DNA from: Eledone cirrhosa
Lineage: Eukaryota
DNA length: 64,000 nt
Assembly (NCBI GenBank): GCA_964016885.1
Contig: OZ024742.1
Location: 265,112,001-265,176,000, forward strand
Direction: 5' to 3'
Shown: in pieces, positions 2,920 through 41,702 of the stretch
Layout: each line of letters opens with the position of its first letter
How positions within the stretch are numbered: the first letter of the stretch is position 1
Made by a program: the position numbers and the translations under genes
Notes under the pieces: generated by a model
What the model was told of the DNA's origin: nothing
What the model saw: the letters and a program-made list of their open reading frames with translations, nothing else
Database searches by the model: none

Positions 2920-4323
2920 ATCAGAGCAGGTTGAAAATATTTCCATTAGATTTACGTCTTTGTGCATGGTAGACGAACATATTAATGGTGTCAGTGAAAA
3001 GGGCATCATCCCCAAGGGAGGCAACTGCATGGTGTAAAGGCAGAAAAGCACCCAAGAATATTTTGTATATCCCAGCTAAAGGGATGGTTTAGCAGGGTGA
3101 GTCTAACTCACTATGTGGTGAGCAGTGCTTAGGCAAAAGTTAGGTGGCTGGTAAATAGCATCATTAAATACTGTACTTAGGCCTAGCCCTCGTAGGAAGG
3201 ACTTAATGGTGGTGTGATGTAGATAGCTGTGGGGATAGGAGGTTATCCCTGGTCTAGAGACCAGTTGTAGAACGAGTGTTGTAGCCTGTGCTTGTAATTT
3301 ATCACCGTCTCAGCTCTACTATTAATGAGTTCGTGGGGCGAGCTTACTATATATTGTTTCCATTAGGCACAGCTGACAATTCTTCCTAAAGATGTAAGGC
3401 GTTGCTTGGTCTACTACTCCCCACTGTGTTGTGTAGCTAATGGTAAATTCTATTAATAATGAATTAGTTGCTGCAATAAGTTGTTTGAGGTAGGTTTTTC
3501 TGCTTGGTAACTGTATAGAATTGAGAGACATCGGTAACGGTTGTTTCTCCAGCATGATGGCAAATAGCGTGTTGAGCTCAACATTTCGCTTCGGCTATTT
3601 TGCACTTAGTAATCTGTATCGCACTTCTCTGTATCTCTCCATCTACTCCTCTCCTAGGATACATATTTCCTATTATTATCATACATATTTCCTATTATTA
3701 TCATACACATTTCCTATTATTATCGTACTCCTTATAGTTGAACTCAACACGCTATTTGCCATCATGTTGGAGAAACAACGCTTACCGATGTCTCTCAAGT
3801 CTATACCGTTACCAAGCAGAAAAACCTACCTCAAACAACTTATTGCAGCAAATAATTCATTTATACGTAGGGTCAGATGGAAGGCCTACCATTTGGACAA
3901 GGATGCAGTTAAACAACCAATGGCTAAAGACAGGTACGGATTCAAGACCTAGAAGAACCCACCGCATAACACCCTTTTGGACACCTTTGAAGACGACTTG
4001 CTAAGTATGATCAAGAATGTCTAATTTAAAAAAGGTTACAAGTGCACCAATGTTTTCCTAAACTCTTTAGACTCCCTCATCACTAAAATTAGGAATTATA
4101 AACACTTATATGTAGCCTCCGACAAAACCAAAAACCTGTATAAGTTAGATATAAATAGATGTAGGCAAGATCTGCTTGAACAATCTACTAAATATTAAAT
4201 CCTCTCCAATATTTAACTCTGCTATTTAGCACATTTCGCTTTGGCTATCGGCATTTAGCAATCTGTATCGTACTTCTCTGTATCTCTCTATCTCCTCCTC
4301 TCCTACGATACATATTTCCTATT
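2920..4323. mobile_element. Penelope-like element fragments in inverted arrangement
   Basis: Plus 3763-4200 encodes SLKSIPLPSRKTYLKQLI..FIRRVRWKAY..YGFKT (PLE RT N-terminus). 3452-3582 is an inverted copy of 3737-3865. Minus ~3045-2960 has CSC..CPF..VYHA, like the Cys motif preceding GIY-YIG. Confidence 0.75.
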
Positions 4324-15320: not shown

Positions 15321-15360
15321 TAGAGCACTCTGTCCAGGGGACTGGTTTTAATATATTATC

Positions 15361-15494
15361 AAATTCAATACTACAACGAAGACATAAGACGGAGAAGCGC
15401 ATGGACGCGCGTTTCGTTGAATAAGTTGAGTTCGCTCAACGGACACGAGGCCTTGTGTTTTTCAGTGTTATGTCTTCGTTGTAGTTTTGAATTT
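15361..15494. repeat. Imperfect ~60-bp-arm inverted repeat (hairpin)
   Basis: AAATTCAATACTACAACGAAGACATAA.. pairs with ..TTATGTCTTCGTTGTAGTTTTGAATTT. The inner half is more diverged. Confidence 0.85.
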
Positions 15495-15724
15495 ATTAAT
15501 AATACACACACACATACACACACAGATATATATATATATATATATTATACAGAGTCGGGATCCGATGGCTGAGTTATTGCCGTTTCAACAGATAGTTCCA
15601 GATTCTTGATATATTTATATATATAAATATATGCTTTCTTTATATATATATATATATAAATGAAGTAATTCCATCGGAAAAGTCCAGGAAAAAAGAGTGC
15701 TCTATGTAAGCAACAGAGCTTAAT

Positions 15725-15994
15725 TATTATTATTATGTAATAAACAACATAAGGCAATTATTCCATTTACCAGTGGTTTCTTAAAAGCAAAAGGTTTTGC
15801 TTTCAATCCTCAGAATGAAAAATCCTGGTTTGTTTATTGAATATGGATTCTAAAAACCTAGGTTTTTAGAATCCATATTCAATAAACAAACCAGGATTTT
15901 TCATTCTGAGGATTGAAAGCAAAACCTTTTGCTTTTAAGAAACCACTGGTAAATGGAATAATTGCCTTATGTTGTTTATTACATAATAATAATA
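15725..15994. repeat. Perfect 270-bp spacer-less palindrome centred on CCT|AGG (15859/15860)
   Basis: The two 135-bp arms are exact reverse complements as checked by eye. Confidence 0.95.
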
Positions 15995-24304: not shown

Positions 24305-25760
24305 TATATATGAAAAATATGAAAACTTGGCGTGCTGCGTGGTTGCAAATGGGTTACATATGAATAAATTTAGTCCTTCATCAGTGATCTTCCAGCCTTC
24401 AGTGGTATTTCATCGCTTTAAAGACCATATATCTCTGGTTGGTGCGAGCAACGGCTAAAAAAAGTCGTTGGGACACGTAAATAGGGGGAACGAGCGAGAG
24501 TGTAAATAAACAAAGATGGTAATGCAACGAAAAGTGAGGAATAAGGAGTCAACTCCCTGAAATCGATGAACATAAGTTCTGTGAAATCGTGGACGAGAGA
24601 GAATAGAGACCATCAAACCTGGTCGAAATGTGAGTAAGGAAAGAATTTCGCCAGGTCAAACGGGAGGAAGAAGGAGCCAAGTCCCTGAAATCGATGAACA
24701 TAAGTTTCTCTATATCTCTCACTTCCTTTTACCCCCTCTATCAGTCACTCTCTCTGTTAGCCTCTTCCTCACACTTTCACTCACTCACTCTCTGCTACTC
24801 CCTCTCCCACTTCCTCCTGTTTGACCTGTGCGAGATTCTTTCCTCACTCACACTTCGACCAGGTCGGATGGTCTTTATTCTCTCTCGTCTACGATTTCAC
24901 AGAACTTATGTTATCGATTTCAGGGACTTGACTCCTTCTTCCTCTCGTTTGACCTGTGCGAAATTCTTTCCTTACTCACATTTCCACCAGGTTTGATGGT
25001 CTTTATTCTCTCTCGTCCACGATTTCACAGAACTTCATCGATTTCAGGGACTTGACTCCTTCTTCCTCACTTTTCGTTGCATTACCATTTTTGTTTACTG
25101 TCTCGCTCGGTCCCCAATTTACGTGTCCAACGACTTTCTTTAGCCGTTGCTCGCACCAACCAGAGGTATATGGTCTTTAAAGCGATGAAATACCAATGAA
25201 GGCTGGAAGATCACTGATGAAGGACTAAATTTATTCATATGTAACCCATTTGTAACCACGCAGCACGCCATGTTTTCATATTTTTTATATATATTTTCCT
25301 CCGCTGTGACCCGTCTGTTTCTTTCTTACTGCTTCCCCTTCTCTCTGTATCTCTCACTTTCTTTTACACCCTCTATCAGTCACTCTCTCTGTTAGCCTCT
25401 TCCTCACACTTTCTCTCACTCACTCTCTGCTACTCCCTCTCCTACTTCCTCCCGTTTGACCTGTGCGAAATTCTTTCCTTACTCACATTTCGTCCAGGTT
25501 TGATGGTCTTTATTCTCTCTCGTCCACGATTTCACAGAACTTATGTTCATCGATTTCAGGGACTTGACTCCTTCTTCCTCACTTTTCGTTGCATTACCAT
25601 CTTTGTTTGTTTACTGTCTCGCTCGTTCCTCCTATTTACGTGTCCCAACGACTTTCTTTACCCGTTGCTCTCACCAACCAGAGATATATGGTCTTTAAAG
25701 CGATGAAATACCAATGAAGGCTGGAAGATCACTGATGAAGGACTAAATTTTTCATATATA
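24305..25760. repeat. Three copies of a non-coding repeat: one inverted, two tandem, with an internal ~127-bp duplication
   Basis: 24305-24705 is the reverse complement of ~24900-25290. 24705-25240 is repeated at ~25340-25760. Confidence 0.9.
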
Positions 25761-25775
25761 TATATATATATATAT

Positions 25776-25851
25776 AGGTTTACATATACATAAACTAGAC
25801 AGAGCCATATATATATCTATGGCTCTGTCTAGTTTATGTATATGTAAACCT
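25776..25851. repeat. Near-perfect 76-bp hairpin
   Basis: AGGTTTACATATACATAAACTAGACAGAGCCATA / TATGGCTCTGTCTAGTTTATGTATATGTAAACCT. Confidence 0.93.
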
Positions 25852-26049
25852 CTATATGTTATATACTCCCATAAGGTTGAGTAAAGATTTAGGCAGTATT
25901 CGGCTGCGCTTTCCAGCAACCAGCCTACTCGCCGTCAGGCACCAATCACAAGCTTTCTGACTTGAACACTGGCCATGTGACAATTCTTAGCCATTTTGAA
26001 TTCGTTTCTGGCGGGGATCATTTAAGAAAAATCTTTGTCCAATTGAGTT

Positions 26050-30034: not shown

Positions 30035-30363
30035 TAAGAAAATCAGTAGACTTGGAACTGGAGTGTTAAGATTGTAACTGACCAATGAGAGGAAGGTATA
30101 TTCTTCGGATGTTGGAATCCGTTCATTCCAATTCATATGCACCAGTTCTTTGAGAAAACAACACCACACTCCGGGACTGGGAATATCAACGAAATAACGG
30201 AGCTAAACTTTGTTCCACCATTATGTTTTCTTGTTTTTTTTTCTGTTCAAGTTCTAGCTGCCTGATGAGGTCATACCTGTTGAATAAAGGTTATCAGCGA
30301 AATATATATTGCAGTGAATATGAATAAACGATGTTAATTTTAACCTGTTGACTTACACTTCTT

Positions 30364-32220: not shown

Positions 32221-33152
32221 CCCCCCCCCACACACACACAGGCACATATGTGTGTGTGTATAAAAGACGAAGTAACTCAGCAGGCTAAACGGCCATCCAA
32301 ATAGCAATTTTTTTTTTTTTTTTTTTTTTTTTTCACCTGGGAGTCACAACACCTTTCTAGGAGAGGCAAACTCTGAAAAAAGACCTGCGGCTTCGGAAGC
32401 ATCCGATGATGCTGACCAGTTCTTCTTTTCGGGTAGTGTTTTCGATGCTCAGGGTGTGGGATTGGTCGAGTGAAAGGCCTTTCCCCACTTAAAAAACATT
32501 TAAAGCATAGGCATTGCTTGTTCCAGATATGTTACATGTTCGTGTGGCTGGTCGTAGCCTAAAGGTGCACCAAACTCTATAATCTGACAAGCCATTGCAA
32601 TACTTTTAGTAGAGTCTGCAGCCATCATATATATGGCCCATTTGTGTGTGTGTCATTTTAACGACTTGATTCATTATTCATTCACCGGGCAGAAAGCGAT
32701 ACATCTACATCTACATCTACGTGGATTTATGCCTAGTAGGTTTGGAAAAGCTATCTGAAGAGCTATATCTTTCTCTGAATTTCCAATATTTTGATAAGCG
32801 AAACCGTCGGTCATGGCACTAGAAGAGGTGAATATTTAAATCGTATTTTAATTTATTTAAAAGATTGTTTAATGTTTACTTGTTCCGCTCATATATATAT
32901 ATATATATATAATATTTATATATATATATATATGTGTGTGTGTGTACGTATGTATGTATGGTTGGATGTAATCTTTGATCGATTGCTGAACAGTCTTAGG
33001 CAAAAAGGTACACAAATGGGATTTGAAATCATAAAATATAAAGGCCGTCACTGAATTCCGCACCGTCGGTCGTCCTGGCGATTCTTCCACATAACAATCT
33101 ACTGCTACTACTACTGCTGCTGCTGCTGCTACTGCTGCTGCTACTGCTGCTG

Positions 33153-33822: not shown

Positions 33823-33926
33823 TGTGTGTGTGTGAGAGAGAGGAGGAGAATGAAGAGCTAGAGGGAGACTGGTGAGAGATAGGAGAGAGGGGATAGTGAG
33901 AGATAGAAGAGAGAGAGAGAGGGGGA

Positions 33927-33991
33927 AGACAGAGGGGGAGAAAAAGTGTGAACGCACATATGTGTGATGTTTTGTGATTGAGTGCCTGTTT

Positions 33992-34046
<55 letters not shown>

Positions 34047-34468
34047 TATGTATACGTACATACATATATGTGTACAGACGTACAGTAGTATGTAATTATA
34101 TACATACATGCACACATATATATATGTAGGTATGGATTTACCGAACATTTATTATAATGCTCCGTTTGTTTGTAAACAAACAGCCTGAATTACGCCGTAC
34201 AGTGCTCGGCAACCATCGTCGCCCTTTTGTTCAACACTGACACAGGAACGATGTACTAGTTTCAAGCTTATTAGTTATCGTCAGCATCGTATACCGACCA
34301 TTATAATAAATGTTCGTTAAATCCATACGTACATATATATATGTGTGCATGTATGTATATAATTACATACTACTGTACGTCTGTACATATATATGTATGT
34401 ACGTATACATACATTTAAGTATCAGCCGTACTAAGAGTGAGAATTGAAATTTCGTTTCATTTTTTTCC

Positions 34469-34504
<36 letters not shown>

Positions 34505-34564
34505 AGGCACTCAATCACCAAACATCACACATATGTGCGTTCACACTTTTTCTCTCCTCTGTCT
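33927..34564. repeat. Nested inverted repeats (outer ~65-bp arms, inner 114-bp arms)
   Basis: 33927-33991 pairs with 34501-34564. 34046-34159 pairs with 34299-34412 (3 mismatches by eye). Confidence 0.92.
34248..34290 (-). ncRNA. Minimal type I hammerhead ribozyme motif, intact core
   Basis: Minus strand: acgatg CTGACGA taactaataagctt GAAA ctag TA catcgt. 6-bp stem I, palindromic ACTAGT stem III, GUA site. Confidence 0.85.
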
Positions 34565-34579
34565 CTATGTATATATATG

Positions 34580-34798
<219 letters not shown>

Positions 34799-35039: not shown

Positions 35040-36700
35040 AGCAGATTAGAGGAAGAGGATGGCGGAGCATTCAGGCCATAGGCGTTAGATGTATATAGAA
35101 AAAAATTAATCTGCTGTTCCTTCGGCCACTTTGCAGGATGCGTAGCCGAAAACAGTGGGGGTGGTGTGTAACATGGCTGGAGGAGCGGGAATGTAGGGAG
35201 ACTAGAAATGGATTGACGTTCTGGATGTCCCAAATTATGATCCACAAATCTGTCGGTCAGTTGACGGCCAGGTTGATCGATGTAGTTAACCTCTCATAGA
35301 GTGCAATAGAGGACATAGACGAGGCCCGTAGATGTACACCTGAAGCGGTCGCTGGGCCTGAGGGGGTTGGTGGCGTTGGGGATGAAGCAATATATGTGAC
35401 AGCGGGGTTGGGAACTGGGTTGGAATCCAGGAGGGGTGTTGGGGAGAAAGAGAATTGTGGAGAAGGAGGCCCTTGAAATTGCGTACACGCTTAAAAGATG
35501 GGAGGGGTGGGGAAAATGTAGGAGGTGGTGGGTCTAGGTACGGGAATGTTAGGTGAGGGAGAATGTTAGAGGGTTGGGGGAGTGGCGGCGTCGTGGTATG
35601 AGGGCAGTGGTACGGTCAACTCCACCGGAACGGGTGAGGATGGGTCGCATCAGGGTAGGGAAGTACTCGCGCTGAGTGAAGTGTCTAGTCATGTATAGAG
35701 TCATAAACTCAACATCATGGGTTCGGCTACATAGGCGGCAGAGACGAAGGAACTTGGAGTAGAAAATGATGTATTTGGCGTAAGTAGGGTGGGATGGGAA
35801 AGATGAGGTCGAGGTAGGAGTGAAGTCAGTGGGTTTGAAGAAGGCTGAAATAAAGAGAAAGAGATGGGAGGCATCAGTAGAGACAGAAATGTCCAGGAGT
35901 GGACAGAAATGGTGGAAATAGTGGTGATGTCAAGGGCGGGATGGAAAGAGCAGAAGAAAGAGGAAGAATTCGAGCTGTGAAAGGGTGAGTGAAGTTAGGC
36001 CGATACAGTCGTCAACGTAACGTCTGTATACCTCGAAGGTGGGGCTAGTATAGTGAGAAAAAATTGGGCTCAACAGAACCGGCGAATAGGTTGGCGTAGC
36101 TTGGGACCATTCTTGTGCCCATGACCACCCCCGTTGTCTGTTGGAAAATCTCACCCGAGAAGGAGAAACAGTTGTGGGTGAGGACCAGCTTGGCCAAGCG
36201 AATAAGAGTGGGGGGTGAATGGTTGAGGGGAGGGGTGAAGGTTGAAAAAGTGTTGGAGAGACAGGAGGCCGTCGGTGTGGGGGATGACCGTACATGTGGA
36301 CTTGATGGCAGAGACAATGGAGTGTTCAGGGTTGTCCGGTTTATATATTTTGGAGAGGATGTAGATGGTGTAGATGTTGGTTGTGTAGACAATAAGCTTA
36401 GTGACTGTGGTGGGTAGGAGTAATGAGGCGACTTGTTGCTGATACTGAAGGGGAGGGATCAGAAGGCAGGAGGTGGTAGAAGAAAGGGTTGTAGGGCTGC
36501 CGTAACGCTTCCGTTTTGTAGAGTTCCGTGCACCACATTATCATAGCTCTCCCCTTGTAAGCCGGTTTGATGACGATGTCATCATGGCCATGGAGGGAGT
36601 GGTGAGCGGCGATATCTGTCCGGGGATGTTGCTGCGTTGTAAGTGTTTCAGGAAATTGAACCAATTCACTGCGTAATAGCAGGTGTTGAACGTGTATAGA
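35040..36700 (-). mobile_element. Decayed Penelope-like element (Neptune-like RT plus GIY-YIG)
   Basis: DIVIKPAYKG, HNCFSF..VMGTRMVPSYANLF, RRYVDDCIG, FRCTSTGLVYVLYC and YIDQPGRQLTDRFVDH. Confidence 0.88.
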
Positions 36701-41163: not shown

Positions 41164-41702
41164 AAATCAAAAGATGGTTAAAAGAGTTCCATGTATTAAA
41201 TTATGCGCATTTCAAAAACAAATATCATCATGGGATGATATTTACGTTCTCGTCAGATAAAATAGGGAGACATGATATGAAGCTTAAAAAACAGTTGCGA
41301 GCAGTGATGTGCTAAATCAACATATGAAAAATAAAATAAGAGGGATATATGAGATTGGGAAAAAAAGGAAAGGAAGGGGGAAGGAAAAGGTAAGGAAGAG
41401 GAAGAAAGAATATAATAAGAAAAAATATATATAATAATAAGGAAAGGATGACGGAGGAGAAGTATAAGAAGGAAGGATGAGAGATGAGGAGAAAATGAGT
41501 GAGAGAGAGAGATAACCTTTAATACTGAGAAACACTGTCTCACAGAGAGAAATAAAAAAAAACGTTGTAAGATAATACATAATTTAAAAGAAATTTAGAA
41601 ATTAAAAGTTAATGAGGTTTATGAATGGTGATGCTTATGATTAAAGAAAAATGAATTAAGAATCATATTTATTTAAGGTTTATATATTGAAGGACCTCCT
41701 AC

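Follow-up and report, generated by a model that had tools for sequence, protein, structure and literature searches.

The window analysed here, a stretch of 64,000 nucleotides from Eledone cirrhosa, contains a hammerhead motif in the loop of a long inverted repeat, which is itself enclosed by a second pair of inverted arms (Table 1). The locus raises the questions of how such a nested structure arose and whether the ribozyme works within it. An earlier note, made from the letters of this DNA, had described arms of 114 bp with ∼3 mismatches around a 139-nt spacer, an outer pair of arms of ∼65 bp, and (TA)n between the two pairs. All of this was recovered. The 114-bp inner arms (34046–34159 and 34299–34412; 3 mismatches) could be extended to the limits given in Table 1, with 115 of 120 positions matching, and the outer arms were 95% identical across 65 nt. 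On both sides (TA)n separated the outer from the inner arms. A non-repetitive segment of 59 nt, which the earlier note had not mentioned, was present on the right side only. When the minus strand of the whole structure was folded, a free energy of –357.9 kcal/mol was obtained (z = –32), and none of 20 shuffled sequences folded equally well. Within the 64-kb window there was no further copy of the loop, the 59-nt segment or the outer arm. We consider it moderately probable that an old fragment of a hammerhead repeat was inserted into a TA tract in the manner of Penelope elements, as two back-to-back copies, with the outer arms made separately. We take the locus to be, most likely, a fossil without activity.

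Table 1. Features of the nested inverted structure and its surroundings (positions in the window; strand cell empty where none applies)
Feature	Positions	Strand	Remarks
Outer left arm	33927–33991		Low-copy; continuous with the GA-rich sequence to its left; interpreted as host flank
(TA)26 tract	33991–34043		Left part of the presumed target
Inner left arm	34046–34165	–	Read as the 3′ part of the long copy; 34141–34165 are family sequence
Loop	34166–34295	–	5′ part present only in the long copy; very high-copy family sequence
Type I hammerhead motif, canonical animal kind	34248–34290	–	Predicted cut between 34254 and 34253
Head-to-head joint	34293–34295		Three letters fit both the 5′ end of the long copy and the start of the short copy
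Inner right arm	34293–34412	+	Inverted, 5′-truncated short copy
One-sided 59-nt segment	34413–34471	+	Probable tail, bounded by two start points of reverse transcription
(TA)15 tract	34472–34501		Right part of the presumed target
Outer right arm	34501–34564		Inverted copy of 33927–33991; 2 substitutions, 1 indel
Long interrupted (TA)n	34566–34796		Outer right arm runs into the tract

RAD reads from two runs (X21 and X23) and contigs of a second organism were mapped to the stretch, with 33979–34140 and 34318–34620 (the distal arms and the 59-nt segment) masked as repeats. It was found that 30,916 of 12,467,656 and 30,738 of 12,785,554 reads mapped, nearly all of them on 34141–34295, and the second organism also carried the loop sequence, in 28 contigs. 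The loop is part of a hammerhead repeat family present in very many copies. Contig depth was ∼1.9 million on the ribozyme versus ∼8–12 on the outer arm, RAD depth being biased and summed contig depth not being a copy number. For the outer arm the depths were 6.75 and 4.86 (bin 33964–33989), or ∼12 and ∼8 after correction for the masking, as for single loci. A pattern scan gave no match in metagenome contigs and none in viral contigs. A shorter pattern gave one metagenome match (L001), which was attributed to chance because no similarity extended past 17 letters.

The two ends of the loop behaved differently in these reads. At 34295, 15,250 of ∼15,889 reads (X21) and 13,533 of ∼14,226 reads (X23) continued into other, mutually consistent sequence (∼95–96%). 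At the opposite end (34166–34169), the loop was followed by the initial 25 nt of the arm in 3,682 of ∼3,964 and 2,964 of ∼3,316 reads among the joints listed, with up to 70 start places per listed joint. Positions 34141–34165 are, by these reads, family sequence that is collinear with the loop in other copies. Since the arm thus begins with what follows the loop 3′ in the family, the right arm represents a second copy, inverted and 5′-truncated. To the question posed in the earlier note, whether the arms accompany the loop in other copies, the reads give a negative answer for the 5′ side of the loop, where ∼96% leave into family sequence. By that note, other copies lacking inverted arms, together with an untranscribed locus, would point to a one-off local rearrangement; as to the copies, others of the family do exist without an inverted arm at 34295. 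Inverted joints of other family copies accounted for 4 of the 11 joints listed. In the joint from 34182–34183 to 34293–34295 the ribozyme lay within the loop (5–18 reads per joint per run, where intervening letters may be hidden), while it was excluded in that from 34201–34204 to 34240–34243 (a single contig per run, in two runs of the same sample). Since inverted joints elsewhere occur with and without the ribozyme, the content of the loop varies with the joint.

This layout is known from Penelope-like elements with an endonuclease, for which an inverted 5′-truncated copy at the 5′ end, a one-sided tail of 30–40 bp and TA targets are standard (PMC8557442 and PMC3846280). In PMC11167929, the anole Penelope enzyme is described as extending both strands in vitro, with two internal start sites defining the tail, and as taking uncut RNA as its main template, the ribozyme cutting only with protein. 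The locus resembles such elements in its inverted 5′-truncated copy, which adjoins the 5′ end of the longer copy (established over the innermost 25 nt of the arm), in its one-sided extension, in its TA target, with (TA)26 and (TA)15 on the two sides, and in its terminal hammerhead. It differs in that the copy at the locus has no ORF, the extension is 59 nt rather than 30–40, and there are extra low-copy outer arms. A target-site duplication is unreadable inside the flanking TA repeats.

At this locus, a Penelope-type reverse transcriptase would have copied RNA from both ends of a cut in the TA tract. At the left end, priming at the proximal start would have given a cDNA running through the uncut ribozyme to 34295, the long copy. 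At the right end, priming ∼59 nt further out, which would leave the tail, and a stop at the equivalent of 34165 would have given the short copy. The long and short products would then have been joined over three shared letters at 34293–34295, a joint placed on the basis of the loose read ends at 34295, the majority letter at 34163 and the read joints to 34293. The ribozyme would lie in the loop because of the stopping place of each product, one copy being longer than the other. As the anole enzyme uses mainly uncut RNA (PMC11167929), an uncut ribozyme in the longer copy would be accounted for. The earlier note had listed the scar of a Penelope-type insertion as one alternative, and the reads fit it, the inner end of the arm being the 3′ continuation of the family. 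Its remark that it knew of no standard element with this layout is incorrect for the inner hairpin, whose layout is known from PMC8557442 and PMC3846280, although the outer arms need an extra step. Several points count against the two-ended insertion. The 3′ ends of the element are not fixed, 34046–34140 and the 59-nt segment having been masked in the reads; the other single hammerhead-like motifs in the window (n = 3) reach TA 43–78 nt past the cut site versus 128 nt here; the distal 83 nt of the arm resemble host microsatellite; and the outer arms require a second event.

The 59-nt segment is probably the tail of the element. In one contig of the second organism, family sequence is joined at 34236 to a stretch of 13 letters, 12 of which match the end of the segment. 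Such 13-letter matches numbered 2 in the window versus 0.10 in shuffled sequences. The contig is one of 24 loose ends listed, with 279 further ones beyond those, and its link between the segment end and the family gives modest support. Two other head-to-head structures in the window have a one-sided extension ending in a T-rich CAT beside (TA)n (∼15659–15724 and 24313–24354). A T-rich CAT at the end is shared by other elements in the window, which weakens the tail argument, and 59 nt compares with printed tails of 30–40 bp. A loose bulged-stem match at 34413–34438 was discarded, since the pattern had been loosened after the sequence was seen and was not enriched (13 matches versus 9–24 in 20 shuffles).

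The core of the motif in the loop is complete and its site is GUA; helix I has 6 bp, and helix III is a palindrome of two pairs. Helix II shows an A-C mismatch at 34275 and a U-U at its base; the latter is also found in the axolotl HHR_Amex2 (PMC7229834). The pairing base at 34275 was present in 10,868 of 11,025 and 7,157 of 7,243 family reads of run X21 (99%). The canonical type I hammerhead is the majority form of the repeat family and is damaged in the copy studied. The upstream letters of the family, as given by the loose read ends, pair by eye with the letters after helix I to give a distal part of that helix, of which the copy studied lost the 5′ strand through the joint at 34295. By folding prediction, the pairing probability of helix I in the hairpin context was <0.01, forcing it cost 7 kcal/mol, and the pairing probability of helix III was 0.0. 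It is reported in PMC4209133 that the weak helix III of canonical animal type I hammerheads impedes cleavage of the monomer, which makes them a dimer-dependent kind. Poor cleavage of hammerheads with a weak helix III on their own is stated in both PMC4209133 and PMC7229834. By sequence and folding, the features of an active monomeric hammerhead are wanting here: helix II is not intact, helix III is not stable, and the distal strand of helix I is missing. The copy is damaged, predicted to misfold and probably inactive. The earlier note had described a compact intact hammerhead; a motif is indeed present at 34248–34290, but its intactness was not borne out, given the A-C pair at 34275 and the lost distal helix I strand.

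Several minor observations concern the same region. The joint makes a short local inverted repeat (34284–34298), and by prediction this repeat ties up helix I together with some of the ribozyme core. The start of the inner arm appears by eye similar to the first 20 letters of the ribozyme. A near-palindrome of 17 nt (34166–34182) is located at the left edge of the loop and adjoins the starting place of the short copy. Rfam gave no match at gathering score across the window; at E up to 10 on 33900–34600 there were 81 matches, none of them a hammerhead, and the matches below gathering score were driven by microsatellites and miRNA-like only.

From the type of the ribozyme, the family likely belongs to the retrozymes. 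Animal non-LTR retrozymes (PMC7229834 and 10.64898/2026.07.22.740005) share with this family a type I hammerhead in which helix I has 6 bp, helix II 4 bp (in the family) and helix III is short and palindromic, as well as a U-U at the base of helix II and a high copy number. Unlike their tandem arrays, with monomers of 150–450 nt, the locus consists of a single sub-monomer fragment. Four motifs of the family were absent from the supplement text of PMC8557442.

Being low-copy, the outer arms probably represent 65 nt of host flank that were duplicated in inverted orientation. To form them, a break end at the TA tract of the insertion would have folded back and copied these 65 nt, shortly before or during that insertion. 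The divergence of the two pairs of arms was alike, with 5 of 120 positions in the inner and 3 of 65 in the outer arms (Fisher p = 1.0), and was about twice the rate of private changes (about 3/155). One private change per inner arm was located near the joint (34163 and 34298). The proximal 40 nt of the inner arm were more diverged than the distal 80 nt (4/40 versus 1/80; p = 0.04, post hoc). The distal 83 nt were microsatellite-like, with a purine-pyrimidine alternation of 0.93 versus 0.57 in the loop. It was also observed that a motif at 33977–33986 (+) in the outer left arm points into the TA tract, and the outer left arm itself may be an old element stub.

The equal divergence and the collinearity of the inner and outer arms would also be expected if all arms had been made at once, and this is the most serious competing explanation, although we regard it as rather unlikely. 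A single cDNA would have run from the left flank to 34295, snapped back at 34163–34165 and been extended through the 3′ part of the element and ∼200 nt of host flank, after which the 59-nt segment would have disappeared from the left side or been added on the right. Apart from the like ages, such a copy-back would suit the distal 83 nt of the arm, which look like host microsatellite, the shorter distance at which the other single hammerhead-like motifs meet TA, and the three letters common to both sides of the joint. There are precedents: snap-back of cDNA by R2 proteins (PMC11371274), foldback of 52–220 bp of flank at 0.3% of L1 insertions (PMC10191854) and self-priming proposed for Penelope (PMC3846280). 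The L1 and R2 cases share with the locus an inverted duplication of flank or cDNA during insertion, but they concern other element classes, and at the locus the whole insertion lies between the two copies of the flank, with the TA tract at their centre. In the titles and abstract starts searched, which covered few subscription papers, flank duplication at Penelope or retrozyme insertions was not found. Against the copy-back stands the additional 59-nt indel that it requires, at the very position which a one-sided tail would occupy; such tails occur in the two other structures of the window mentioned above, and one contig links sequence like the segment end to the family. If the copy-back were true, the locus would be fossil evidence that Penelope-type mirror ends can arise through self-priming of cDNA, with host flank duplicated too, and priming from both break ends would not be the sole route to mirror ends.

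Equal ages and collinear arms would likewise result if the insertion had been templated by read-through RNA of a donor copy together with its flank, both arms then being RNA-derived, outer parts included. Penelope can mobilise unrelated sequence in trans, as stated in PMC3846280. This transduction is nevertheless improbable: the contig depth of the outer arm corresponds to one or two loci, the arm merges with the local GA-rich flank, and internal initiation, as reported in PMC11167929, makes the capture of 3′ flank unlikely.

The leading idea of the earlier note was that a hairpin RNA functions here by cleaving itself in the loop and releasing dsRNA for siRNA or ADAR pathways. A transcript would indeed fold very stably, and the catalytic core letters and helix I are complete. 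This idea was not supported, and we give it very little credence. The helix II mismatch is private to the copy studied, its helix III is of the dimer type, the joint has removed the distal helix I strand, and helix I would be formed in less than 1% of the folds at the energetic penalty given above. Ribozymes with a weak helix III are poor cutters alone in the two papers quoted for this point (PMC4209133 and PMC7229834), and that of the anole cleaves only with protein (PMC11167929). Moreover, the stem is present without any cleavage. A fossil of ADAR editing was rejected as well, because only 2 of the 7 arm substitutions were A/G.

The slightest chance is left to a foldback DNA transposon or MITE that had captured a ribozyme between long terminal inverted repeats, also raised in the earlier note: the long near-perfect inverted arms stand in a TA context, but no terminal inverted repeats travel with the interior in other copies, since ∼95–96% of the reads exit the 5′ side of the loop into other sequence, the arm starts with collinear family sequence and the outer arm is low-copy.

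Taken by itself, the locus matters little, as a decayed head-to-head insertion of a hammerhead repeat of a kind that is common in this genome: the structure is real, its ribozyme damaged and its insertion layout known, the inverted flank duplication being a modest extra. Its use is as a test case. Given the 3′ ends of the family and an empty site, a low-copy flank duplication separates two-ended priming from cDNA snap-back in the origin of Penelope-type inverted ends.

The surrounding window was rich in microsatellites and contained many decayed retroelements. Decayed ORF fragments at 35050–36540 (–) point toward the TA tract at 34566–34796, and we presume that they resemble Penelope-like RT and GIY-YIG motifs. 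No Pfam family was found in five translated fragments, which included these ORFs and that of 3458–3861. A tie between the hammerhead insertion and the fragments at 35050–36540 could not be shown; these gave no Pfam family and look far older. Single hammerhead-like motifs in unrelated sequences were located at 30262–30310 (+), 32755–32812 (+) and 41200–41256 (–), with the TA run 43–78 nt downstream.

There were four other inverted structures in the 64-kb window. At 3458–3861, inverted arms of 125 bp surround 154 nt with a 22-nt tandem repeat and overlap the start of an ORF, which we take to resemble a Penelope-like N-terminus. In the loop of a small imperfect hairpin at 15349–15501, a hammerhead-like motif (minus strand) is present with its 3′ half only. 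A perfect palindrome with 135-bp arms is embedded in TA at 15659–15994, with one outward hammerhead-like motif per arm and a one-sided extension of ∼66 nt. The structure at 24313–25760 consists of head-to-head arms, 92–95% identical, of a repeat with an internal 128-nt unit. Its ends in TA differ by a one-sided extension of 42–50 nt, and only half a hammerhead core was observed near the ends. Its right end adjoins a palindrome with 44-bp arms (25770–25857), which is centred on a short TA run and, apart from TA-like matches, does not recur in the window; this palindrome is possibly a fold-back of flank resembling the outer arms.
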